DNA of 64,000 bases from Candidatus Eiseniibacteriota bacterium. Its GTDB lineage: Bacteria > Eisenbacteria > RBG-16-71-46 > CAIMUX01 > VGJL01. The notes beneath the pieces were generated by a model. The model had not been told where the DNA came from. It worked only from the letters and a program-made list of their open reading frames with translations, and searched no databases. Positions 8,800 to 22,067 of the stretch are shown here, in pieces. The stretch is from NCBI GenBank assembly GCA_041946735.1, contig JBHGAY010000024.1:1-64000 (forward strand), in the 5' to 3' direction. Both the position numbers and the translations under genes were made by a program. Position 1 is the first letter of the stretch. Every line of letters begins with the position of its first letter.

Positions 8800-10365
8800 T
8801 CAGCCGTTCGGGTCGTGGGGCGCGGAAGCCGGCCGCTCCCCCGCGATCGGCTCGCGGCGCCACGCGCCGTCGCCGGAGATCCAGTTCGCGGCCAGATCCG
8901 TAGCGTCCTTCACGCACTGGTTCACGGCGACCCCGCGATACGCGTTCCCGAGGAGGCCGAGGCGGCGTCCACCGCCCGGATCGAGGCGCGCGAGCCTGCC
9001 CGCGATCCTCTCCAGCCGGGCGCCATGTCCGATCTCGTACTGCGGAATCCCGAGCGGATGGCGGAAGAGATGCACCCGCCGCGGGGGCGCCTCGATCCCC
9101 ATGCTCTTGCGCAACTCGTCGCGGACGATCGCGACGATCTCTTCGTCGGGCAGCGAAGCCGCCTGCGGATCGTGCGCGCCGCCGAGCATCGCGCGGACGA
9201 GCACCCATCCCTCCGGCGCGCGGTGCGAGAAGACGGAGGAATCCCAGAGGCAGCCCAGGATACGCAGTCCCTGCCCGCGCGGAACGAGGAAGCCGAATCC
9301 GTCGGGAACGGACGCGAGATCGGACACCGGCCAGGCGAAGGCGGCGACGGCGAGCGGCGCCGAAGCGATCCCCGCGAGATCGGTGGCCATCGGCTCGTCG
9401 AGCGGGCGCAGGATCCGCGCGGCCGCGCCGGCGGGGACGGCGATCACGACCCGCTCTGCCTCGAACGATTCCCCGTCCTGGGTGGCGAGGACGAATGCGC
9501 CCGAGCCTTCGACGCGTGAGATCGACGCCACCGGGCGGCCGAGGCGGACCCGGTCGGCGCCGAGACGCTCGCCGAGGCGCTCGATCAGGGTTTCCATGCC
9601 GTCTCGAAACGAGGTGAGGACTCCCGAGGGACCCGATGGGCCGCCGCGCCCGTTCTTCTTCCGTCCCCCGCCCTCGCGCTCCCGTCCTTCGCGCGCCCGT
9701 CCGTCGCGCGCCCGTCCGTCGCTGGCCCGTCCGTCGCGGGCCCGTTCGTCCCGCGCCCGCCGCGCCTCGCTCCGCCTGGCGAGCATCGCTCGCACGAGAC
9801 TGCCGTGGTCGCGCTCCATCGCCGCCATCTTCGGGAAGGTGCTGGCGAGCGAGAGCTTCCTCGCATTGCCGGCGTAGACGCCCGACACCATCGGATCGAC
9901 GAGGAACTCCGCCGCTTCCCGCCCGATGCGCCGCGCCGCGAAGTCGAAGACCGTTTCGTCTCCTTCGGGACGGCGAGGCGCAAACGGCTCCCACAGCACC
10001 CGGAGCCGCCCGCGCACCGAGAGGATGTCGGAACGAAGGAAGCGGGGTGGCGCAAGAGGGATCTCGCGAAGCCGTCCCTCTCGCCAGAGAAAGCGCCGGC
10101 CGGCTGCGTCGCGCGCCCGCTCGAGCTCCGCGTCGAGGCCGAGATGCGAAACGAGCGCGAGCGTCTCCGGGACGGAGTCGAGAAAGCCGTTCACGCCCCA
10201 CTCCACGACGAAGCCGTCCTCGCGCAGGGAGCGGATGTTGCCGCCGAGCCGCGACGCGCCCTCCAGGACGAGGAGGTCCGTGCTCGGCCTCCGCCGGAGG
10301 ATCTCGAAGGCGCTCGCGAGCCCGGCGATGCCTCCGCCCGCCACGACAACCTCGAGCTTCCTCAC
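8800..10365 (-). CDS. hemY: FAD-dependent protoporphyrinogen/coproporphyrinogen oxidase (HemY family)
   Basis: GTG start; VAGGGIAGL FAD motif, RLGGNIRS, LVDPMVSGVYAG, GIPQYEIGH, GNAYRGVAVNQCV; last gene of the heme operon. Confidence 0.9.
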   Translation of the reverse strand: MRKLEVVVAGGGIAGLASAFEILRRRPSTDLLVLEGASRLGGNIRSLREDGFVVEWGVNGFLDSVPETLALVSHLGLDAELERARDAAGRRFLWREGRLREIPLAPPRFLRSDILSVRGRLRVLWEPFAPRRPEGDETVFDFAARRIGREAAEFLVDPMVSGVYAGNARKLSLASTFPKMAAMERDHGSLVRAMLARRSEARRARDERARDGRASDGRARDGRAREGREREGGGRKKNGRGGPSGPSGVLTSFRDGMETLIERLGERLGADRVRLGRPVASISRVEGSGAFVLATQDGESFEAERVVIAVPAGAAARILRPLDEPMATDLAGIASAPLAVAAFAWPVSDLASVPDGFGFLVPRGQGLRILGCLWDSSVFSHRAPEGWVLVRAMLGGAHDPQAASLPDEEIVAIVRDELRKSMGIEAPPRRVHLFRHPLGIPQYEIGHGARLERIAGRLARLDPGGGRRLGLLGNAYRGVAVNQCVKDATDLAANWISGDGAWRREPIAGERPASAPHDPNG

Positions 10366-10375
10366 CGGAGCTTCC

Positions 10376-11446
10376 TCACCGGCGGCGCTCTCCTTCCCGC
10401 GCTTCCGTTCCTCCCCGTCCCGCCCGCGCGCCTGCTCCCCCTTCCGCTCGCGCCCCGGCTCTCTCCTCCGCCGCCTCGAACGCTCCGATTGCGATCGCGG
10501 CGAGCGCATCCAGGAAGGCCGGGTCGCTGTTGAGCGACGGCACGCGCGCGAAGCGCGCGATCCCGGCGCGCCGCGCCTCCTCTCCGAAGAGCATGTCGAT
10601 CTCGTAGAGCGTCTCGATGTGGTCGGAGACGAATGCGACGGGGATCGCGAGGACGCAGCGCCGCCCGGCGAGCGAGCGAATCACCTCGTCGGTCCCCGGG
10701 CCGACCCACCGTACCGGTCCGACGCGGCTCTGGAATCCGAGCCGGTGCTCCGGGCGCCGCCCCAGCGTTCCCTCGAGCGAATGCATCACGGCGTCGACCG
10801 TCTCGCGGATCTGCCGCACGTACGGATCGCCGCGCCGCGCGAGCCGCTCCGGCACCCCATGGGCGCTGAACAGCAGCACCGCCTCCGCGCGGTCCTCCTC
10901 GTCGAGTCGGTCGAGCGCCTCCACGATCCGTCCGACGAGCGCCGCGACGTAGCCCGGATGCTCGTGATAGCTATGGACGATGTCGATCGTCATCGCCGGC
11001 GCCACCCGGTCCCGGGCGGCGCCGAGATCGGCGAGGCTCGAGCCGGTCGTGGCGCGGCACTCGTGCGGATAGAGAGGCAGAGCGAGCGCCCGCTTCTCGC
11101 CCGCTTCGACGAGCCGCGCGAGCGCCTCCTCGGCGAACGGCGGCGCGTAGCGCATCGCCACCTCGACCCGTACGCCGGGCTTCCCGCGTCGGGCGAGCGC
11201 GCGCTCGAGGCCGCGCGCCTGCTCGCGCGTGAGACGCAGCAGCGGCGATCCCCCGCCGATCCGCGCGTAGAGCTTCCGCACCCGAGGCGCCCGCGCCGCC
11301 GTGATCGCCCGCGCGAATGCCGGCTGCACCCACCGCCCGCCCGGCAGCGCGATCAGCATCGGATCGGAGAAGAGCCGGAGCAGGAACGGCCGCACGTCGT
11401 CGAGCGTCTCCGGCCCCCCCATGTTCAAGAGGACGATCGAAGCCAC
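10376..11446 (-). CDS. hemH: Ferrochelatase
   Basis: LLNMGGP, YARIGGGSPL, LFSAHGVP, FQSRVGP, FVSDHIETLYEID. Confidence 0.95.
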   Translation of the reverse strand: MASIVLLNMGGPETLDDVRPFLLRLFSDPMLIALPGGRWVQPAFARAITAARAPRVRKLYARIGGGSPLLRLTREQARGLERALARRGKPGVRVEVAMRYAPPFAEEALARLVEAGEKRALALPLYPHECRATTGSSLADLGAARDRVAPAMTIDIVHSYHEHPGYVAALVGRIVEALDRLDEEDRAEAVLLFSAHGVPERLARRGDPYVRQIRETVDAVMHSLEGTLGRRPEHRLGFQSRVGPVRWVGPGTDEVIRSLAGRRCVLAIPVAFVSDHIETLYEIDMLFGEEARRAGIARFARVPSLNSDPAFLDALAAIAIGAFEAAEERAGARAEGGAGARAGRGGTEAREGERRR

Positions 11447-11449
11447 GCC

Positions 11450-12847
11450 CTAGACCGTCCTCGAGAAGACCGGCTGCCCCGACGCCTGCTTCGCCGCGAG
11501 GTAGGCGTCGAAGAGCATGCAGACGTTCCGGACGAAGAGGCGCCCGGTCTGCGTCACCCGCACCCGGTCCGCCTCGACCTCGACGAAGCCGTGCTCCTCG
11601 GGGACCTTCAGCTCCTCCAACTCGCGCGCGAAGTAGGCGCGGAAGTCGATGCCGAAGCGCTCCTCGATCCCCGCGAGGCGGACCTCGAAGTTGCACATCA
11701 AGCTCGCGATCACGACCTGCCGGATGCGGTCGTCCACCGACAGCTCGTATCCCTTCTCGATCGGCAGCCGCCCTTCGTCGAGCGCCGGGTAGTAGGTGGA
11801 GAGCTTCTTCACGTTCTGCGCGAACGCGTGCCGGACGTTGCCGATCGAGCTGATCCCGATCCCGACCTGGTCGGCCGCCGGCATGACGGTGTACCCCATG
11901 AAGTTCCTGTAGAGGCGCCCCTCCGCCTGCGCGATCGACAGCTCGTCCTCCGGCAGAGCGAAGTGGTCCATCCCGATCTGCCGGTACCCCGCCGCCGTGA
12001 ACGCCTCGAGCGCCTGCAGGAACAGCTCGAACTTCACCTCCGGCGGCGGCAGCGTCGCCGGGTCGGTCTTCTTCTGGTTGCCCCGGATCCAGGGAACGAA
12101 CGCGAAGCTGTAGACGGCGACCCGGTCGGGACGCATCGCCACCACCTGCTCCAGATTCTTGCGGAAGGTCGCGACCGTCTGCATCGGGAGCCCGTAGATC
12201 AGATCCACGTTGATCGACGAGAAGCCGATCCCGCGGCAGTATTCGTACAGCTCGACCGTCTGCTCGAGCGACTGGTTGCGGGCGATCGCGGCCTGCACCT
12301 CCGGCGTGAAGTCCTGCACCCCCATCGAAAGCCGCCCGAAGCCGATGTCGCGCAGCGTGTCGATCTGCTCGCGCGATGTGACGCGCGGGTCGACCTCGAT
12401 CGCGATCTCCGCCTCCGGCGCGATCGTGAAGTGGCGCCGGATCTCGGACATCAGGTCCCGCATCTCCTCGGACGTCTGATAGGTCGGCGTCCCGCCCCCC
12501 CAGTGCACCTGATTGACGAGCCGGCGGTGGGGCAGGCGGGAGGCGACGAGAGCCGTCTCCTTCTTCAGGTACTCCAGATAGCGGCGCGTGATCTCGTGCT
12601 TGTGCGTAATGATCACGTTGCATCCGCAGAACGTGCAGCGCTCGTGACAGAACGGCAGATGGAAGTAGAGCGAGAGCGGCTCGCCCGAGCGCGCATCCGC
12701 CTCCGCCAGCTTGCGCTCGTAGGCGGCGGAGTCGAACCGTTCGTGGAACTCGACGGCCGTCGGATAGGACGTGTAGCGCGGGCCCGGCCTGTCGTAGCGC
12801 CGCAGCAGCTCGGCGGTCACGCGCCTCGGGGTCGTCTCTTCGATCAT
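11450..12847 (-). CDS. hemN: Oxygen-independent coproporphyrinogen III dehydrogenase (radical SAM)
   Basis: GPRYTSYPTA N-terminal motif of true HemN; HLPFCHERCTFCGC; WGGGTPT; RNFMGY. Confidence 0.95.
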   Translation of the reverse strand: MIEETTPRRVTAELLRRYDRPGPRYTSYPTAVEFHERFDSAAYERKLAEADARSGEPLSLYFHLPFCHERCTFCGCNVIITHKHEITRRYLEYLKKETALVASRLPHRRLVNQVHWGGGTPTYQTSEEMRDLMSEIRRHFTIAPEAEIAIEVDPRVTSREQIDTLRDIGFGRLSMGVQDFTPEVQAAIARNQSLEQTVELYEYCRGIGFSSINVDLIYGLPMQTVATFRKNLEQVVAMRPDRVAVYSFAFVPWIRGNQKKTDPATLPPPEVKFELFLQALEAFTAAGYRQIGMDHFALPEDELSIAQAEGRLYRNFMGYTVMPAADQVGIGISSIGNVRHAFAQNVKKLSTYYPALDEGRLPIEKGYELSVDDRIRQVVIASLMCNFEVRLAGIEERFGIDFRAYFARELEELKVPEEHGFVEVEADRVRVTQTGRLFVRNVCMLFDAYLAAKQASGQPVFSRTV

Positions 12848-14019
12848 CGGCTTCTTCCTTCCGGCCGGCCTGCTTCCTTCTCGCCGCGCCCCGCGGGCGG
12901 GCCCGCCGCGGCGCCGCCGGGGTTCCGTGCGGCACCGCCCGCGCTCGACGCGGCATGCGCCGCCTCGACGAATGCCTGCGCGTTCTCGACCGGGGTCTCC
13001 GGCAGGATGCCGTGCCCCAGATTCAGAACGTGCCCCTTCAGCCCGCGCGCCTGCTCGAGGATCTCGCGCGTCCGCGCGACGATCGTCTCCGGCCGCCCCA
13101 GCAGGATGCCGGGGTCGAGATTCCCCTGCAGCGCGAAGCGATCCTGCAGGACTTTCCGCGCCTCGGCGAGCGAGATCCTCCAGTCGATTCCGATCACGTC
13201 CGCCCCGACCGTCGCGATCCGCTCGAGCGCCCCCATCGCGCCCGGCGCGAAATAGATCCTCGGAACGCCGTCGCGCCGCACCCGCTCCAGCACCTCGCGC
13301 GCATACGGCAGCGCGAACGCCTCGTAGTCCTCCGGAGAGAGGATCCCCGCCCAGGAATCGAAGAGCTGGACGGCCTGCGCGCCCGCCGCGATCTGCCGCT
13401 CGAGCGAGACGACGGCGGCGTCGGTGATACGCCGCAGCAGGCGGTGGGCCGCCTCCGGATCGCCGAAGAGCAGCGAGCGCATCTCGACGTGGTTGCGCGA
13501 GCCTCCTCCGCCGGTCGCGTAGGCGGCGACCGTGAACGGGGCGCCGGCGAATCCGATCAGCGGCACGGCCCCGTCGAGCGCGCGCCGGATCGATCGGACC
13601 GCGTCGTCCACGCGATCGAGGATCGGGCTGCCGGACGGATCGCGGAGACGATCGACGTCGGCGGCGACGCGGATCGGGTCGCGAATCTCGGGCGCCGGAT
13701 GGAACTCGATCGACAGCCCCATCGCGGCGAGCGGCACCAGGATGTCGGAGAACAGGATCGCCGCGTCGACTCCGAGCCGCCGCACCGGCTGCAAGGTCAC
13801 CTCGGTCGTCAACTCGGGAATCGTGCACATCTCCCAGAACGTGTGCTTCTCCCGAAGCGCCCGATACTCAGGCAGGAAGCGCCCGGCCTGCCGCATGATC
13901 CACACGGGGGCCGCGTCGACCGGCAGGCCCCGGCAAGCGCGCAGGAATCGCTCGTTCTTCGTGGGGCTCGGAATGCCTGGCGTGCCTGCCGCACCGACCC
14001 CCGCGCCGGTCCCGCTCAT
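12844..14019 (-). CDS. hemE: Uroporphyrinogen decarboxylase
   Basis: PVWIMRQAGR, DAAILFSDILVP, LIGFAGAPFT, LQGNLDP, NLGHGI. Confidence 0.95.
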   Translation of the reverse strand: MSGTGAGVGAAGTPGIPSPTKNERFLRACRGLPVDAAPVWIMRQAGRFLPEYRALREKHTFWEMCTIPELTTEVTLQPVRRLGVDAAILFSDILVPLAAMGLSIEFHPAPEIRDPIRVAADVDRLRDPSGSPILDRVDDAVRSIRRALDGAVPLIGFAGAPFTVAAYATGGGGSRNHVEMRSLLFGDPEAAHRLLRRITDAAVVSLERQIAAGAQAVQLFDSWAGILSPEDYEAFALPYAREVLERVRRDGVPRIYFAPGAMGALERIATVGADVIGIDWRISLAEARKVLQDRFALQGNLDPGILLGRPETIVARTREILEQARGLKGHVLNLGHGILPETPVENAQAFVEAAHAASSAGGAARNPGGAAAGPPAGRGEKEAGRPEGRSR

Positions 14020-14032
14020 GCTCTCGTCCCGC

Positions 14033-15331
14033 TCATGCTCTCTCCCCCTGCGCGACCGCCAGCGACTCGCGGGCCGCCGCGACGACGCGATCGATCTCCT
14101 CTTCCGTGTGCGCGGCCGACAGGAACCATGCCTCGAACTGCGATGGCGCGATGTAAATCGACCGCCGCAGCATCTCGCGGAAGAAGATGGCGAAGCGCCC
14201 GGTGTCCGCCTCGCGCGCCTCGTCGGCGTTCTGCGGGAGGAACGGACGGAACCACAGCGTCCCGAGCGAGGCGATCCCGACATAGGAGGACTCGCCGCCG
14301 AGATCGGCGACGGCGCGGTTCAGTCCTGCCGCCAGGCGCGCGCCCAGCGCCTCGAGACGCCGGTAGACCGCGCCGTCGCGCAGCATCTCGAGCGTAGCGC
14401 GTCCGGCCGCGACGGCGAGCGGATTGCCGGACAACGTCCCGGCCTGGTAGATCGGTCCCTCGGGGGCCAGGTAGCGCATCCAGTCCCTCCGTCCCCCGTA
14501 CGCGCCGACCGGAAGGCCGCCGCCGATCACCTTCCCGAGCGTCGTCAAATCGGGCAGGACGGAGAAGCGCTCCTGCGCGCCGCCCCATCCGAGCCGGAAC
14601 CCGGTGATCACCTCGTCGAAGATCAGCGCCGCCTTCTCGCGATCGCAGATGTTCCGCAGTCCCTGCAGGAACCCGTGCGCGGGGAGCAGGCAGCCGATGT
14701 TCGCCGCGACCGGTTCGACGATGATCGCCGCCAGCCGCCCCGGATTGTCGGCGACGATCCGCTCGACCGAGGCGAGGTCGTTGTAGCGGGCGACCGCCGT
14801 ATCCCGCGCCATGCCCGCCGTCACACCGGGACTGCTCGGATAGCCGAGCGTCGCTGCGCCCGAGCCGGCCTGGATCAGGAAGGAATCGGCGTGGCCGTGA
14901 TACCCGCCGTCGAACTTGATCAGGAGATCCTTGCCGGTCACGCCGCGCGCCAGGCGCAGCGCGCTCATCGTCGCCTCGGTGCCGGAACTGACCAGCCGCA
15001 CGCTCTCGATCGAGGGCACCGCCTCGACGATCGTCTCGGCCATCTCGATCTCCGTGACGGTCGACGCTCCGAAGCTCGTGCCGTCGCGGGCCGCCCGCGT
15101 GATCGCCTCCACGACCGGCTCGGGCGCGTGGCCGAGGATCAACGGCCCCCACGATCCCACGAGGTCCAAGTACTCCCGCCCCTCCTCGTCCCAGACATGC
15201 GATCCGGCGCCGCGCCGCAGGAACGGCGGCCCGCCACCGACCGCGCGGAACGCTCGTACCGGCGAGTTGACCCCTCCCGGGATCACCCGCAAGGCGCGCT
15301 CGAAGAGCGACGCGTTGCTCACCGCAGCCAT
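14033..15331 (-). CDS. hemL: Glutamate-1-semialdehyde 2,1-aminomutase
   Basis: [50 protein letters not shown]; start at ATG 15331 or GTG 15322. Confidence 0.95.
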
Positions 15332-16290
15332 CGGGCCGCCTCCTTCGCGAAGTAGGTGAGGATCAGATCCGCTCCGGCGCGGCGGATCGCGGTCAGCGTC
15401 TCGAGCGCCGCCGCGCGCCGGTCGATCCAGCCCCGCTCGGCGGCCGCGCACAGCATCGCGTACTCGCCCGATACGTTGTAGGCGGCCACCGGCAGGTCGA
15501 ACTCGCTGCGCACGCGCAGGATCACGTCGAGATAGGCAAGCGCCGGCTTCACCATCACGATGTCGGCCCCTTCCTCGACGTCGAGCGCGACCTCGCGCAG
15601 CGCCTCGCGCGCGTTCGCCGGATCCATCTGGTATCCCTTCCGGTCGCCCGAACGCGGCGTCGATTCGGCCGCTTCCCGAAACGGACCGTAATAGGCGCTC
15701 GCATACTTGGCGGCGTAGGAGCAGATCGCCGTCTGCTCGAAACCCGCCTCGTCGAGCGCGGAGCGGATCGCGCCGACCCGTCCGTCCATCATGTCGGACG
15801 GAGCGACCACGTCGGCGCCGGCGCGCGCATACGCGAGGGCCGCGCGCGCGAGCAGGTCGAGCGTCGCGTCGTTGTCGACCGTCCCGTCGCGCAAGACGCC
15901 GCAATGTCCGTGGTCGGTGTACTCGCAGAGGCAGACGTCCGCCCAGATCGAAAGCCCCGGCAGCGACTCGCGCAGCGCGCGGATCGCCCGCGGCACGATC
16001 CCCTCGTCGTCGTAGCCCTCCGTGCCGGTGGCATCCTTGCGCTCCGGAATCCCGAAGAGGATGACCGCCGGGACGCCGGCGGCCTGCGCCTCGCTGCACT
16101 CCTCGACGAGACGGTCGATCGAGAGCCGCTCGACCCCCGGCATCGAGGAGACCGGCTCGCGGAGCCCGCTCCCATGCCTCACGAACAACGGCAGGATCAG
16201 ATCGTCGACCGAGAGACGCGTCTCGCGGACCATTCGCCGTATCGTCTCGTTGCGCCGCAAGCGCCGGGGGCGCTCGGCCGGAAAGCTCAT
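15319..16290 (-). CDS. hemB: Porphobilinogen synthase (Zn-type)
   Basis: [50 protein letters not shown]. Confidence 0.97.
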
Positions 16291-17879
16291 CGCAAACCTC
16301 CCTCGATCCGGTCCCTCGTGATCGGACGGCCGGCACCGGCGGGGGCGGCGCCGCTACCGCCGCCGCCATCGCCGATTGCCTCCCCGGTCGCCTCCCTGCC
16401 GCTCGCCGGCTGCGCGTGACCGAGCAGCGCACGCTCGACCGCCTCCGCCATCCCTTCGTTCGAAGCCTCCCGCGCCTCCGCGTCCGGAGCCATGCCGAGC
16501 GAGCGCATCGCGGCCGCCGTCGTCGGACCGATCGCCACGACGCGGGGCCGCGGAGCGGGCGCTTCCCGCCACGCGCGGCCGAGCAGCGCCTCGAACGCGC
16601 GCGCCCCCGACGGGCTCGTCAGGCAGATCGCGTCGATCCTGCCCGCGAGGAGATCCGCCTCGATCGCTTCGAACGCGACGCCGCCGGAGAGCTCCGTGCG
16701 GTACGCGACGACCTCCGTCACCTCGACGCCGGCCGCGCGCAACCGCGCCGGCAACTCGGGCTGCGCCTGCTCGGCCCGCGGCAGGAGCGCGCGGAGTCCC
16801 GCAGGCCGATCGACTCGCGCGAGCAGCGCGCCGGCGAGCGCGCCCCCGGTGGCGGTGGCCGCCACGAGATCGCACCGGCCGAAACGGTCACGCGCGCGGG
16901 CCGCCGTCGCCTCGCCCACCGCGCCGATCGCGGGACGATTCCCGGACAGCGGCCGGCCGGCCCCAGCCGGCGCCGCGCCGCCTTCCGTCGCGTCGGCGAA
17001 CGCATCGACCCCGCGCGCGCTCGTGAAGAGGACCCAGTCGTACGAGGCCGCCCGGGCCGCAGCCTCCTCGAGCGGACGTCGATCCCGCGGGGGCTGCGTC
17101 ACGAGCAGGGGCAGGTGGAGCGCAACTCCCCCGCGCCGCTCGATCGCAGCCGCCAGGCCGTCCCCCTCCTCGCGCGTCACGAGAATCCGCGCTCCCCGCA
17201 GCGTTCCGGCGATCCCGCTCCCCGCCGCGGCGCCTCCTGCCCCGAGGCCGCGCCACACGAAGTCGAAGAGCTGCTCGGGCTCCGCGTTGCCGCGTTGCGC
17301 GGCCTTCCCCTCGGCGAGACACCGCAGCGCCGCTCCCTCCAGCGCGCCGAGCACCAGATCGGTCGCCATCTCGACCGGCATCGCGCGCACGCTTCCTTCC
17401 GCAAGCCCTCGCTGCAGCTCTTCGCGCAGCAGGGAGCGGAGCCGGTCCCATCGGGGCGCCGCGCCGCCCTCCACCGCGCTGCCGATCGGGCAGGCCTCCT
17501 CCTTGCGCATCATGCGGAAGAAGTTCGGGTAGCGGAGCAGGAACAGGAGGACGTGGACGAGGATCTTCCTCAAGCGGAGCTTCGAGCTCTCCTCCCCCTC
17601 GAACGCCGCGCGCAATCCCTCCATCAGGTGATCCATGCGCGAGTCGAGGATCGAGAGGTAGAGGTTCTCCTTCGAGGGGAAGTACAGGTAGAGCGTCCCC
17701 TTCGCCACCCCGGCGCGTTCCGCGAGCTCTTCCATCCGGACCTGGGAAAGCTCGCGCCCGGCGAAGAGCCCCGCCGCCGCTTCGAGGATCTCCTCGCGCC
17801 GGCTCCGGCCTCCGCCGCCGGCAGCGCCGTTGCCGTTCGCGCTCCTCGCGCGCCCGCCTCCCGCCTCCGCCGCCATCAC
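16287..17879 (-). CDS. hemD: Fusion: TetR/AcrR-family regulator (N-term) + uroporphyrinogen-III synthase HemD (C-term)
   Basis: N-term [13 protein letters not shown]...[23 protein letters not shown] (TetR HTH); Gly/Ala linker; C-term [45 protein letters not shown] (HemD). Sits between hemC and hemB with 4-nt overlaps. Confidence 0.88.
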
Positions 17880-18916
17880 GGCTCCCCCGGCTGCGCCGCT
17901 CCGCGCGCCCGCGCCTCCGCGAGAAGCTCCTTCGCCCCGGAGGCGAGAAGCTCGGCGGCCAGCGCGACGCCGGTCGCCTCGGCCTCCGCGATCGTCCCCT
18001 CGCGCGCGCCTCGAAGCAGCTTCCGCCCGTCGGGATCGGAGACCATCGCCTCCAGCCGCAGCCGCGGCCCTTGCCCCTGCCCCTTCCCCTGCCCCTGCCC
18101 CTGCGGATCTTGCGGGACGATCCGCGCCAGCGCCCCCACCGGAACCTGGCAGCCTCCCCCCAGCGCGTGCAGGAAGGCTCGCTCCGCCGTCACCGTCGCC
18201 CGCGTCACGGGATCCTCCAGGCGCGCGAGAAGCGTCGCCGCCCAGCCGTCCGCCTCGCGGATCTCGACGCCCAGCGCCCCCTGCGCCGGCGCCGGCAGCA
18301 GCAGGGAGGCCGGCAGGACTTCCGTCACGTGACGAAGCAGGCCGAGCCGCGCAAGACCGGCGTGCGCGAGGACCACCGCGTCCAGCTCGCCCCCGAGCGC
18401 CTTCTCGAGTCGCGTGGGGACGTTGCCGCGCAGCGGCAGGATCTGCAGATCGCCGCGCGCGTGCAGCAGCTGCGCCCGCCGCCGCAGGCTCGAGGTCCCG
18501 ACCCGCGCCCCCTGCCGCAGGTCCGCGAAGCTCGACGCCCCGCTCGCGACGAGGACGTCGGCCGGCTCTTCCCGCGACAGGATCCCGCCGAGCGCGAGCC
18601 CGCCGGGCAGCTCGGTCGGAAGGTCCTTCAGGCTGTGCACGGCCAGGTCGATCGAGCCGGCGAGCAGAGCGCGCTCGATCTCCTCCGTGAACAGTCCCTT
18701 GCCACCGATCTCGGCGATTGGCTGGTTGAGGGCTCGATCCCCGCGGGTCGAGAGGATCTCGATCCTCACCTGGAGATCCGGCTCCAGCTCGCGCAGTCGC
18801 GCCGCGACGTGCTCCGCCTGCCAGCGCGCGAGCGCGGATCCGCGCGAGCCGATCGTGAGCTGCCGGCCGGCGCCGGGAGCAGGACCGCGCGCGCCCGCGT
18901 CAGCCGGCGTTTCCAT
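17876..18916 (-). CDS. hemC: Hydroxymethylbilane synthase
   Basis: IGSRGSALARWQ, GGKGLFT, VHSLKDLP, GTSSLRR, LRGNVPTRL, GGGCQVP. Confidence 0.96.
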   Translation of the reverse strand: METPADAGARGPAPGAGRQLTIGSRGSALARWQAEHVAARLRELEPDLQVRIEILSTRGDRALNQPIAEIGGKGLFTEEIERALLAGSIDLAVHSLKDLPTELPGGLALGGILSREEPADVLVASGASSFADLRQGARVGTSSLRRRAQLLHARGDLQILPLRGNVPTRLEKALGGELDAVVLAHAGLARLGLLRHVTEVLPASLLLPAPAQGALGVEIREADGWAATLLARLEDPVTRATVTAERAFLHALGGGCQVPVGALARIVPQDPQGQGQGKGQGQGPRLRLEAMVSDPDGRKLLRGAREGTIAEAEATGVALAAELLASGAKELLAEARARGAAQPGEP

Positions 18917-20180
18917 CGTGCCCTCCCAGTCCGAAGAGATGGCGGATCGTTTCGAGCGGCGCGAATCCGTCCGGACCGAGCCGCTGATATCCCCGGATCC
19001 GCACGCTCGGCTCGTGCAAGAGCTTGTTGACGATTCCGCGCGTGAGCGCGTCGAGCTGCTCGCGATCCTTCTCGCAGAACTTCCTGCCGAACCGTTCGAC
19101 CTCCTGCGCCCGCACCTCCTCGAAACGATCGCGAAGCGCCTTCAAGATCGGCGCCGCCCCGAGCGACTCGTACCAGCGCAGATACTGCTCGGTCTCATGG
19201 CGGATGATGCTCTCGACCTTCGGGATCTCCTTCGCGCGCCGCTCCAGGTTCTTCTGCACGAGGTCCTGCAGCGAGTCGACGTCGTAGAGAAACACGTTCG
19301 GCAGATCGCGCACGGCCGGCTCGACGTCGCGCGGCACGGCGATGTCGAGGATCAAGAGCGGTCGATTGCCGCGGGCGGCGAGCGCGCGCTTCACCGTCTC
19401 GTAGCGGACGATCGGGACGGGAGAAGCGGTGGCGCTGACGACGATGCTCGCGATCGTGAGCGCCCCCTCCAGCTCGGCGAAGGGAATCGCCCGGCCGCCC
19501 AGCATCCCGGCGAGCGAGGCCGCATGCTCCGGCGTGCGATTGGTCACGAGAAGCTCGCCGATCCCCTGGTCGCACAGGTGCCGGGCGGCAAGCGCCCCGG
19601 TCTCTCCCGAGCCGATCAGCAGCGCCGTCTGCTGGCCCATGTCGGAGAAGATCCGCGAGGCGAGGGCGACGGCGGCGAAGCTCACCGACACCGCCCCGGA
19701 CCCGATCTCCGTCTCGGTCCGCACCCGCTTGCCGACCCGGAAGGCGGCCTCGAGGAGGCGATGGAACAGCGGCCCGGCCGTCCCCGCGCGCCGCGCGATC
19801 TCGAACGCCTCGTGGACCTGTCCCAGGATCTGCACCTCTCCGACGACCATCGAGTCGATCGACGACGCCACCCGGAAGAGATGGCCGACCATCGACTCCC
19901 CGCAATAGCGGTAGAGGCTGTCCGCGTGCGCCGCGAGGTCCACGCCGCGCTTCTGCTGGACGAGCGCGCGGAAGTGCCGCTCGAGCGGCTCGCTCCCCTC
20001 GGCCAACGCGTACATCTCGGTTCGGTTGCAGGTGGAGAGGAGCATCCGCTCGAAGATCGGCTCTCGATCGCCGAGCGGAACGCGCAGCGTCTCCTCCGCC
20101 TCGGCCGGAGTGAAGGCGACACGCTCCCGCAGCTCGATCCCGGCGGTGCGATGGTTCAGGCCGACGACGATGAGCTCCAT
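18900..20180 (-). CDS. hemA: Glutamyl-tRNA reductase
   Basis: GLNHRTA, LSTCNRTEMY, DSMVVGEVQILGQV, IGSGETG, DIAVPRDVE. Confidence 0.96.
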   Translation of the reverse strand: MELIVVGLNHRTAGIELRERVAFTPAEAEETLRVPLGDREPIFERMLLSTCNRTEMYALAEGSEPLERHFRALVQQKRGVDLAAHADSLYRYCGESMVGHLFRVASSIDSMVVGEVQILGQVHEAFEIARRAGTAGPLFHRLLEAAFRVGKRVRTETEIGSGAVSVSFAAVALASRIFSDMGQQTALLIGSGETGALAARHLCDQGIGELLVTNRTPEHAASLAGMLGGRAIPFAELEGALTIASIVVSATASPVPIVRYETVKRALAARGNRPLLILDIAVPRDVEPAVRDLPNVFLYDVDSLQDLVQKNLERRAKEIPKVESIIRHETEQYLRWYESLGAAPILKALRDRFEEVRAQEVERFGRKFCEKDREQLDALTRGIVNKLLHEPSVRIRGYQRLGPDGFAPLETIRHLFGLGGHDGNAG

Positions 20181-21007
20181 GCCGGTCCCGCGAAGTGGTG
20201 GAAGCTGTGAAGGAATGCCCCGACGAGGAGAAGCGCGATCCCCATCAGGAGGAATCCGGAGATCGACAGGTAGATCGCGCGCTTCCCTCGCCATCCCAGC
20301 CGGTAGTACGCCAGCACGCATGCCAGATAGATGCACCAGACGGTGACGGTGAGCAGGAACATCGGATCGCGCGTGAAGCCGTGCACCAGGCGACTCGCCC
20401 AGAAGATCCCCGCCACGATCGCGACGGTCAGCGACGCGAGGCCGAGCACCGCCGCGCGGATGTTCATCCGCCCGAGGACGTCGAGCGGCGGGAGCCTCCG
20501 GTAGACGAGGCCGAAGCGCGAGGCCTTCAGCTCGTGATAGAGCAGGAGGAACAGGAAGCCGTAGATCGCCGAGACGGCGAACGCCGCATAGCCGAGGATC
20601 GCGAAGCCGGTATGCAGTCCGAACCACGGCAGCCGCAGCAGCTCCGGCACCTCCGCATCGAGCGCGATCCGCCCCGAGGAGGCGAACTGCAACAGGGTCG
20701 AGAACGCGAGCAGGAAGAAGCCGGTCGAGAGGTTCTTCGTGCGCGTCTCCACGTAGAAGTATGCGACCGCCGTAGCGAAGGCGATCACCGAGAGGAACTC
20801 CGGCGCGTTGGCGAGCGGCATGCGCCGGTGCGCGAGCACGAACGAGACGAGATAGAGGAGGTGGACCGAGAGCGTTGCCATCAGCGCAGGACGCGCCATG
20901 CGCCCGATACGGTCCCCCCGGCCGAAGAAGACGTATCCATAAAGGAGGAAGGTCGCCACGTAGAGCGTGGGGACCGCGCAGCGAAGGACGGCGAGCAGAG
21001 TGCTCAT
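20156..21007 (-). CDS. CcsA/HemX-like cytochrome c assembly family membrane protein
   Basis: About 8 hydrophobic segments with conserved His (WFGLHTG, C-terminal SFHHF); this family commonly precedes hemA. Confidence 0.8.
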   Translation of the reverse strand: MSTLLAVLRCAVPTLYVATFLLYGYVFFGRGDRIGRMARPALMATLSVHLLYLVSFVLAHRRMPLANAPEFLSVIAFATAVAYFYVETRTKNLSTGFFLLAFSTLLQFASSGRIALDAEVPELLRLPWFGLHTGFAILGYAAFAVSAIYGFLFLLLYHELKASRFGLVYRRLPPLDVLGRMNIRAAVLGLASLTVAIVAGIFWASRLVHGFTRDPMFLLTVTVWCIYLACVLAYYRLGWRGKRAIYLSISGFLLMGIALLLVGAFLHSFHHFAGPAWSSSSSA

Positions 21008-21090: not shown

Positions 21091-21110
21091 TGCACTGACC
21101 GGTCAGTTCA
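21091..21110. promoter_or_regulatory. Putative TetR-type operator, perfect palindrome ACTGACCGGTCAGT (21094-21107)
   Basis: TGcACTGACCGGTCAGTtCA lies immediately downstream of the predicted -10 of the heme operon. Confidence 0.7.
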
Positions 21111-21116
21111 TCGCGA

Positions 21117-21146
21117 ATCGTAACGAGACCGTTCTGCGGGGGTCAA
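21117..21146 (-). promoter_or_regulatory. sigma70-like promoter of heme operon
   Basis: Minus strand TTGACC-N18-TACGAT in the AT-richer intergenic region upstream of ccsA. Confidence 0.6.
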
Positions 21147-21317: not shown

Positions 21318-22067
21318 CTAGAAGGGCCTCTCCTCCTTGTCGAGGAACGCCTTCACCAGCTCGCTGAAGTCCTCGGCACCGCTGCTGCCGGGGGCGGTCA
21401 CCTGGATCGGCGCATGGAATCCGCCCGCCTCGGCGAGCCGCGCGTTCTCACGGATCGGCGGCAAGACGGAGGCGCCGTACACCTCGCGGAGCGTCGCCTC
21501 TACCTTCCCGCTGAGCCGTGTGCGCACCGTCCGGTTAGGGACGATTCCGGCAATCCGCAGGCGAGGATTGCGGTGCCTCTGCACCTGCTCCACGACCTCG
21601 ATCAGAAGCCCGAGGATCTGGAGGTCCAGTTCGCGGGTCGTGACCGGCACGATGACGCCGTCGACCGACGAAAGGCTGGCGACGAGGAGCGATCCCCAGG
21701 TCGGCGGCGTGTCGATCAGGACGTAGTCGATCTCGGGGTCGACCTGCCCCACGAGATTCGCAAGCCGCTCCCGCGTCGGATGCGCGCCGTTGTCGAACGG
21801 GGCGAGCATCCGGTTCCCCGGGGCGATCGTGAGGCCGGTGACCAGGGTGCTGGTCAGAACGTCGGCCAGCCGCTTCTCGCCGGCGAGGCTGTCCGCCAGG
21901 TTGCCGTTACAGGACCGGGGAAGCAGATGGAAGCTGCTCGATCCCTGCGGATCGAGGTCGAAGAGCACGACGTTGCGTCCAGCCAGGGCCAGCCCGGCCG
22001 CGAGATTGACGGCGATCGTGGTCTTGCCCGATCCGCCCTTGATGTTGGCGATCGCGTACGATCTCAT
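21318..22067 (-). CDS. ParA/Soj-family ATPase (orphan)
   Basis: Deviant Walker A KGGSGKTT, DLDPQG, LIDTPP; RBS AAGGAGG; no adjacent parB. Confidence 0.88.
   Translation of the reverse strand: MRSYAIANIKGGSGKTTIAVNLAAGLALAGRNVVLFDLDPQGSSSFHLLPRSCNGNLADSLAGEKRLADVLTSTLVTGLTIAPGNRMLAPFDNGAHPTRERLANLVGQVDPEIDYVLIDTPPTWGSLLVASLSSVDGVIVPVTTRELDLQILGLLIEVVEQVQRHRNPRLRIAGIVPNRTVRTRLSGKVEATLREVYGASVLPPIRENARLAEAGGFHAPIQVTAPGSSGAEDFSELVKAFLDKEERPF

Follow-up and report, generated by a model that had tools for sequence, protein, structure and literature searches.

A gene in which a TetR-type repressor is joined in frame to uroporphyrinogen-III synthase (HemD) lies within a ten-gene haem biosynthesis operon of a Candidatus Eiseniibacteriota bacterium. 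We analysed positions 1 to 64,000 of contig JBHGAY010000024.1 (GenBank assembly GCA_041946735.1), a stretch of 64,000 nucleotides that we call the window, in which the tetR::hemD gene occupies 16287..17879 on the reverse strand. The fusion is real and conserved. Its product is likely to serve the cell as uroporphyrinogen-III synthase and, in addition, to repress the ten-gene haem operon that encodes it, acting through a single operator at the operon promoter. Our model predicts that the TetR module would bind the palindrome ACTGACCGGTCAGT as a dimer. The bound repressor, overlapping the transcription start of the single promoter before hemX, would block RNA polymerase. Because the fusion gene is inside the operon that is driven by the repressed promoter, the protein would repress its own synthesis and all ten haem genes by negative autoregulation, and the dose of repressor would be tied one-to-one to the dose of HemD. 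How tightly the protein binds is presumably governed by a ligand in the FadR-like pocket of its TetR body. DNA binding, dimerisation, repression and enzyme activity, as well as the existence and identity of a ligand, are what we infer from sequence.

The same architecture was found in other genomes. A word-indexed search returned 16 further proteins combining TetR_N with HEM4 at 31-51% identity, one of which is labelled Candidatus Eisenbacteria by NCBI and several of which carry the Joint Genome Institute (JGI) label 'uroporphyrinogen-III synthase/AcrR family transcriptional regulator'. Within the phylum, the fused frame was present in 6 of 206 species genomes, comprising the window's own genome and five relatives of the same order; four of these belong to the window's family, which is represented by six genomes, and two to genus g19 of a neighbouring family, where no genome is without it. 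The genomes of the window's family that do not carry the fusion (G002 and G005, ~99-100% complete) had no HEM4 match at all. Among the best 150 rows of a profile search of 1.84 billion cluster representatives (50% identity), 26 were fused. A scan of species genomes identified the same architecture at full length, with 24-29% identity, in ~14 metagenome-assembled genomes of Ignavibacteria that have a guanine-plus-cytosine (GC) content of 33-36%. At 12 of the 13 Ignavibacteria loci examined, the gene is in an operon of the order hemX-hemA-hemC-...-tetR::hemD-hemE-hemN as far as the contig reaches, the gene of L028 being elsewhere. The domain-architecture search (TetR_N plus HEM4) that an earlier note on this DNA had proposed thus showed that the fusion recurs in relatives and in Ignavibacteria. 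The rarity implied by that note did not hold, as the architecture is common in Ignavibacteria and some copies are already JGI-labelled. The note had also taken the architecture to be undescribed; no paper on a TetR-HemD protein was found in the full-text literature, from which most subscription journals are excluded, and this part of the claim stands for papers but not for databases, which hold and partly label the architecture.

The TetR module and its candidate operator

Residues 27-212 of the fusion protein (17244..17801, reverse strand) constitute a TetR module of nine helices, as judged from Pfam, an AlphaFold2 model and matches to profiles of Protein Data Bank (PDB) entries. The helix-turn-helix (HTH; Pfam TetR_N, PF00440) at residues 31-76 (17652-17789, reverse strand) was identified with an E value of 3.2e-15 and 56 bits against a cut-off of 24, and a weak Pfam match to TetR_C_41 was found at residues 146-193. 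The AlphaFold2 model was generated from an alignment of 20 sequences from both clades and has a mean predicted local distance difference test (pLDDT) score of 81. Helices of the TetR body extend from H27-41 through H199-212, with pLDDT values mostly above 85, whereas Gly-rich ends at residues 1-23 and 489-530 are disordered in the model. Thus, the protein has the N-terminal HTH of the TetR family and, in the model, its all-helical nine-helix body. The best matches of the N-terminal half in the PDB sequence profile search were the FadR/YsiA structures 1vi0 (1.5e-26, profile positions 9-196) and 3whb (3.3e-26, positions 9-181), and Foldseek returned TetR repressors with template modelling (TM) scores of ~0.78-0.80 normalised to the target. 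Proteins of the FadR/YsiA subgroup are therefore the nearest solved sequence relatives over the whole TetR half. FadR/YsiA-type proteins are dimeric repressors that bind palindromes at promoters. Those of Bacillus and its relatives (1vi0, 3whb/3whc, 5gp9/5gpa and 6azh) share the full-length match and the nine-helix fold with the N-terminal half of our protein; however, these acyl-CoA sensors are stand-alone regulators of fatty-acid genes, ~190 aa in length, whereas the window protein adds a 300-aa C-terminal enzyme and is encoded in a haem operon.

To look for an operator, we compared the upstream 350 nt of hemX at seven loci, namely those of the window and of five relatives with the fusion plus L021, which is more distant. 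An element, TTGAACTGACCGGTCAGT, was conserved in upstream sequence that could not otherwise be aligned, and its core is ACTGACCGGTCAGT. By this sequence comparison, the window contains a perfect 14-bp palindrome at 21094-21107 within a 10+10 inverted repeat (21091..21110). This candidate operator begins 6 nt past the second hexamer of a promoter-like site, TTGACC-18-TACGAT (21117..21146, reverse strand), and no other sigma70-like match occurs between 12000 and 22500, a span of 10.5 kb. Overlap with the transcription start is a classic repressor position, and the conserved operon encodes no DNA-binding protein apart from the one with the TetR module. On these grounds ACTGACCGGTCAGT is the predicted operator of the TetR module, and its predicted role is in repression.

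The palindrome was found upstream of hemX at all seven loci with a fused or split regulator; it is perfect at five of them and contains one mismatch in G004 and two in G023. It occurs once in the 4.89-Mb genome when up to one mismatch is allowed, compared with zero occurrences of a reversed-pattern control, and with up to two mismatches its mean expected count in shuffles of the window was 0.13. Conversely, the best match in the 350 nt upstream of hemX had at least 4 mismatches in 14 positions in each of 12 hemX-hemA operons of the same order or class that encode a plain HemD. The regulatory role in the pathway that the earlier note had assigned to the protein is thus backed by a unique promoter palindrome that co-occurs with the regulator. 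In genomes without the fusion, the loci of 12 palindrome sites were searched (11 sites with one mismatch and a perfect one in G008), and none of these sites is within 1.5 kb of a hem gene; we read them as chance occurrences, most of which appear to be inside coding sequence. Separately, a near-copy of the palindrome extended to ACTGACCGGTCGGTCAGT was observed at G020:C31:26197-26210 (L113), ~160 bp from an unrelated stand-alone TetR gene. The product of this gene is 33% identical over the HTH region, and it could be a paralogue that regulates through a similar operator.

We also compared the 70%-GC clade with the 34%-GC Ignavibacteria clade. No difference was found between them in the recognition-helix stretch VAKGT.Y..F.SKE.LY. 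Alignment of the sequence upstream of hemX from 11 Ignavibacteria loci revealed two conserved blocks, a proximal TA.TTTTG.AC......GTCA, exemplified by TTTTTGAACTCACAAGTCAG and identical to the window site at 14 of 18 positions, and a distal GAC-N6-GTC, exemplified by TTGACTCACCGGTCAAAT. When a symmetrised matrix built from the seven high-GC sites alone was scanned over the 11-17 kb Ignavibacteria loci, the best match was in the 200 bp upstream of hemX at four of the 11 loci, and one of the top five matches was there at eight. This cross-clade result is supportive of the predicted operator but not strong, because the Ignavibacteria loci are mutually related.

Several observations weigh against the dual role that we propose. 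No conserved polar, His or Cys residue that would indicate a ligand was found in the TetR pocket when both clades were aligned. The seven and 12 operons contrasted above cannot be counted as 19 independent cases; those with the fusion form a single lineage, in which HemX is 63-73% identical, compared with 30-46% identity to HemX of the plain-HemD operons. In principle, the site could be the operator of another factor and have been inherited along with the operon. The matrix scan was only moderately specific, as three of the 11 Ignavibacteria loci had no top-five match upstream of hemX. The contig of L021, where the two modules are encoded by separate genes, has ~3.7x coverage, and its split could be a sequencing error, although the TGATG at which its genes meet is a typical coupled junction. 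Lastly, the fused proteins were not one clade in a HemD tree, which gave 12 state changes, at least five of them forced by well-supported branches, and HemC-HemD proteins nested inside the main fused clade. This tree (FastTree, 146 domains, 26 of them fused) has a heterogeneous composition, and 68 of its 143 inner branches are unsupported. These features suggest either that the history of the fusion was not single and clean or that the HemD tree is unreliable. As the tree was poorly supported, we drew no conclusion as to a single origin of the fusion.

Possible signals and the coupling of the two modules

The nearest solved relatives bind acyl-CoA, which suggests that the ligand of the TetR pocket is large and hydrophobic. 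One alternative reading is that the protein is an end-product sensor in which haem, protoporphyrin or coproporphyrin binds the TetR pocket as a co-repressor, resulting in feedback on the operon. We regard this as possible but rather doubtful. The regulated operon does make haem, and the closest solved relatives accommodate large hydrophobic ligands in their pocket, as FadR does acyl-CoA (3whb). Moreover, TetR-family haem sensors exist; as described in PMC11442138, HrtR, HatR and FhtR are stand-alone proteins of haem homeostasis that control efflux rather than synthesis and that leave DNA on binding haem. That logic is the wrong way round for the operon studied here, since a repressor released by haem would switch a biosynthetic operon on at high haem. 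Residues that could ligate haem also argue against an end-product sensor. The earlier note had pointed to a Cys-Pro dipeptide, which is at residues 129-130 of the window protein, and to His residues of the TetR half as possible haem ligands. Neither proposal was supported by the comparison of homologues, as Cys-Pro is kept in only five of 17 fused homologues and every His and Cys position of the TetR half is variable when both clades are compared. The cross-clade alignment contained no invariant His, Cys or Met in residues 80-212, and His112 is replaced in five homologues (P0011, P0019, P0021, L024 and L028). HrtR ligates haem via two His residues, whereas the TetR half of the fusion has no invariant His; neither a conserved axial His pair of the HrtR type nor a conserved Cys-Pro was found. 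An Arg-rich pocket was also considered and rejected, as R102, R104 and R122 are conserved in the high-GC clade but not in Ignavibacteria.

A second alternative, which we think unlikely, is that the protein is a trigger enzyme in which hydroxymethylbilane or uroporphyrinogen III in the HemD active site alters the arrangement of the domains and thereby controls operator binding. In that case flux would be sensed by HemD itself, without the need for a separate ligand in the TetR pocket. The protein combines predicted enzyme and DNA-binding functions in one chain, as a trigger enzyme does, and the two modules have been kept in one chain in ~26 clusters and in two distant clades. HemD enzymes are hinge proteins, and the root-mean-square deviations of 3.5 to 8.4 Å obtained for the matched uroporphyrinogen-III synthases (U3S) fit open and closed forms. 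The absence of a conserved ligand-type residue from the TetR pocket is also in line with a trigger enzyme, and a paper on the actinobacterial regulator NnaR proposes that its HemD-like domain may sense hydroxymethylbilane or uroporphyrinogen III (PMC11162112).

The connection between the modules argues in the other direction. The Gly/Ala-rich linker at residues 213-230 (17190..17243, reverse strand) is predicted to be disordered, with pLDDT values below 50 at residues 216-224, and its length among fused homologues varies from almost none to ~80 residues, even in close relatives (alignment A1, columns 250-320). The AlphaFold2 model contained no confident packing between the TetR and HemD domains, their relative placement not being predicted (predicted TM score 0.50). 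A complex prediction with two TetR modules and one HemD module scored 0.00 against a mark of 0.32, which counts neither way. In addition, the halves occur separately. L021, which is ~36% identical to the window protein, encodes tetR (208 aa) and hemD as separate genes that overlap in TGATG, and its operon has a perfect 18-bp palindrome upstream of hemX; P0065 is a stand-alone 239-aa ortholog of the TetR half. Because of this split form, the stand-alone P0065 and the variable linker, the TetR and HemD modules can probably work apart, which argues against rigid allosteric coupling through the linker. The variable linker, the split form and the lack of confident packing in the model fit two tethered independent modules at least as well as they fit a trigger enzyme. 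It is similarly improbable, though conceivable, that HemD turnover or occupancy by its unstable substrate hydroxymethylbilane directly tunes the hold of the tethered TetR dimer on the operator in a flux-sensing trigger enzyme and that promoter, operator, regulator and pathway move between lineages as a single cassette. If such flux sensing did occur, the whole haem pathway would be transcribed according to the load on HemD, the step at which formation of the uroporphyrinogen I isomer, a dead end, is prevented.

The HemD module and the integrity of the fusion

The reading that we favour, an enzyme that also represses its own operon, depends on a working HemD half. The HemD module comprises residues 231-486 (16422..17189, reverse strand) and was identified by Pfam HEM4, Foldseek and residue alignment. 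HEM4 (PF02602) matched residues 242-478 over profile positions 3-230 of 231, with an E value of 2.3e-49 and 168 bits against a cut-off of 27.5, and residues 231-486 are a two-lobed alpha/beta domain in the AlphaFold2 model. Foldseek matched this half to human 1jr2 and Pseudomonas 3re1 and 4es6 at E values of 1e-9 to 1e-10 and TM scores of 0.68-0.77 normalised to the target, and Thermus U3S entries (1wcx and 3d8r) were also among the matches from Foldseek and the PDB sequence profile search. All of the HemD motifs listed in the earlier note (FTS, AVG, PRA, YRT, TSPS and AIG) are present in the translation, the last of them as AIGPTT. Residues S287, G322, T325, Y393, S422, G451 and T454 are invariant in the 20 sequences, and the counterpart of Y393 in the tagged human U3S chain of 1jr2 is the Tyr at chain index 189, which we take to be human Tyr168, the conserved active-site tyrosine. 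Thus, the fusion has the same profile, two-lobed fold, motifs and conserved Tyr as stand-alone HemD/UroS proteins, and it occupies the usual hemD slot after hemC; unlike the fusion, the stand-alone enzymes are without a DNA-binding module. A predicted disordered Gly-rich tail that is absent from homologues follows at residues 487-530 (16290..16421, reverse strand; AlphaFold2 model and alignment).

The fusion protein is the sole HEM4 match in the window's genome (G000; 94.8% complete, 4.89 Mb), which encodes all other steps of the haem pathway. It is likewise the sole match in six of the seven other fusion-bearing genomes examined, G041 having a second one. The HemD half looks intact, and since the genome has all the other haem genes but no second HEM4 match, we predict that this half is the cell's working uroporphyrinogen-III synthase. 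NnaR provides a precedent for the opposite outcome, a dead, sensor-only HemD domain with catalysis by another enzyme, since it is a HemD fold that was recruited to a transcription factor with its activity lost, according to PMC11162112. This explanation is very improbable for the fusion, which covers the HEM4 profile from end to end (168 bits), retains the conserved Tyr and the Ser/Thr motifs as invariant residues, occupies the hemD slot from hemC to hemB and has no second HEM4 match beside it in a genome with every other pathway step. The same paper, PMC11162112, describes NnaR as an activator of nitrate/nitrite assimilation genes whose HemD domain is reported to be inactive in Streptomyces coelicolor and whose architecture is said to be restricted to actinomycetes. 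NnaR and the fusion both combine a HemD fold and a DNA-binding domain in one chain; however, NnaR has an N-terminal HemD and an OmpR/PhoB-type winged helix, whereas the fusion has TetR followed by HemD, and Pfam found no OmpR-type domain in it. The two also differ in that the HemD of NnaR is reported to be inactive, whereas that of the fusion is the sole copy and looks intact.

As the earlier note had described, the fusion gene is one uninterrupted open reading frame (ORF) at the hemD position, open for 530 codons from 17879 to 16287 on the reverse strand, and its product contains a full TetR HTH and body, a Gly/Ala linker and a HemD domain, each of which was recovered by Pfam, the AlphaFold2 model and the translation. 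The stop codon is at 16287-16289. Initiation at the GTG at 17879 would give 530 aa, and initiation at the ATG at 17876 would give the 529 aa that are present in the protein collection (P0002). The 4-nt overlaps reported in the note were also found, with a qualification as to the start codon. The junction of the hemC stop with the fusion start reads gTGATG, which gives a 4-nt overlap with hemC for the GTG start and a single shared base of the hemC stop for the ATG start. The fusion stop and the hemB start overlap in ATGA, and the fusion is translationally coupled to both hemC and hemB.

The note had further proposed that the linker be checked for a stop codon or frameshift. A Logan contig of run X1 (word depth 22.5) covers 16200-18000 and crosses the junction with 0 differences and 0 gaps, although X1 is possibly the source sample, such that this agreement is not fully independent. 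Runs X2 and X3 contained identical pieces elsewhere in the fusion gene and none across the linker, and 14 raw reads of X7 aligned only in part and with less than 99% likeness. A search of sequencing runs for the stretch listed no RNA run. The fusion is not an assembly artefact: the notion that a lost stop codon or a frameshift merged two neighbouring genes, for which the separate genes of L021 might be cited, has next to no chance of being correct given the X1 assembly and a fused frame that is open in six species genomes of two families, in ~14 Ignavibacteria genomes and in ~26 clusters at 50% identity.

Two further observations concern the history of the architecture. HemX of genus g19 is 67-69% identical to that of the window but 37-46% identical to that of other genera of its own family, and the corresponding values for HemA are ~62.5% and 39-43% (loci L095 and L096, from G027 and G023, compared with L123-L130). 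This likeness of the g19 operon to that of family f1 suggests that the operon was transferred as a whole, its regulator and operator included. A variant protein, P0018 (607 aa, 41% identity), contains, in this order, one or more response-regulator receiver domains, a TetR C-terminal domain without the HTH, and HEM4. A phospho-receiver seems to have taken the place of its DNA-binding head, although the gene is on a single 5.7-kb contig and could be a chimera.

The haem operon and comparison with known systems

The earlier note had recognised a complete haem operon, and we were able to assign all ten genes, hemL included. They are in the order hemX-A-C-(tetR::D)-B-L-E-N-H-Y on the reverse strand and are tightly packed or overlapping. 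The first gene, hemX-like (20156..21007), encodes a CcsA-type membrane protein (PF01578 in Pfam). It is followed by hemA for glutamyl-tRNA reductase (18900..20180, likely start ATG 20180) and hemC for hydroxymethylbilane synthase (17876..18916). Downstream from the fusion are hemB for porphobilinogen synthase (15319..16290), hemL for glutamate-1-semialdehyde aminomutase (14033..15331; TIGR00713, 556 bits, above the cut-off), hemE for uroporphyrinogen decarboxylase (12844..14019, with an approximate start at ATG 14019), a hemN-type gene for a radical-SAM coproporphyrinogen oxidase (11450..12847, start approximate; Radical_SAM plus HemN_C), hemH for ferrochelatase (10376..11446) and a hemY-type gene for a flavin oxidase (8800..10365, start approximate; Amino_oxidase). 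The mechanical ORFs of hemA (18900-20627) and hemE (12844-14283) are ~150 and ~90 codons too long at their upstream ends, respectively, and overlap the preceding genes; with the starts given above, which are likely those of the real genes, the overlap with neighbours is only 15-25 nt. An Arg-rich ORF of 378 aa at 14016-15152 on the reverse strand ('unk378') was first taken for a conserved unknown gene of the operon and is instead a wrong-frame shadow of hemL. It looked conserved in tblastn at 40-46% identity and had no Pfam match, and even its wrong-frame translation led to the hemL family in a feature search of a protein atlas.

Directly upstream of the haem promoter is a gene for a ParA/MinD-type ATPase (21318-22067, reverse strand) with no evident link to the operon; this position is kept in four of the six related operons compared (G001, G003, G004 and the window). 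Ten of 12 Ignavibacteria operons contain an ORF of ~199 aa without a Pfam match between hemC and tetR::hemD (for example L026:7362-7961). Its copies are 43-54% identical, and it has no counterpart in the operon of the window. The Ignavibacteria TetR::HemD proteins occupy the same hemD slot, and a conserved operator-like site is found at their operon promoter. By comparison, the window represents a 70%-GC lineage with a perfect-palindrome operator and a ten-gene operon that includes hemB, hemL, hemH and hemY. Other HemD fusions seen among the matches, CobA-HemD (TP_methylase plus HEM4) and HemC-HemD, join HemD to enzymes of the pathway, whereas the partner in our case is a transcription factor.

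To our knowledge, transcriptional control of bacterial haem synthesis is known for few model groups only. Irr, HbrL and PefR are the regulators of haem synthesis named in PMC11442138, together with regulators of haem efflux such as HrtR. Our analysis predicts a dedicated, operon-specific repressor in two poorly studied lineages, Eisenbacteria-type bacteria and Ignavibacteria, and the prediction is concrete in that it specifies a 14-bp operator, a promoter and a regulon of a single operon. An operon that resembles that of family f1 in genus g19, and not those of its own family, looks transferable along with its operator. If its ligand proves to be a tetrapyrrole intermediate, the TetR module might find use as a biosensor in pathway engineering. 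Tying the dose of a repressor to the dose of a pathway enzyme would be an unusual design for homeostasis, and the fusion offers a directly testable model of how haem operons may be controlled in uncultured lineages.

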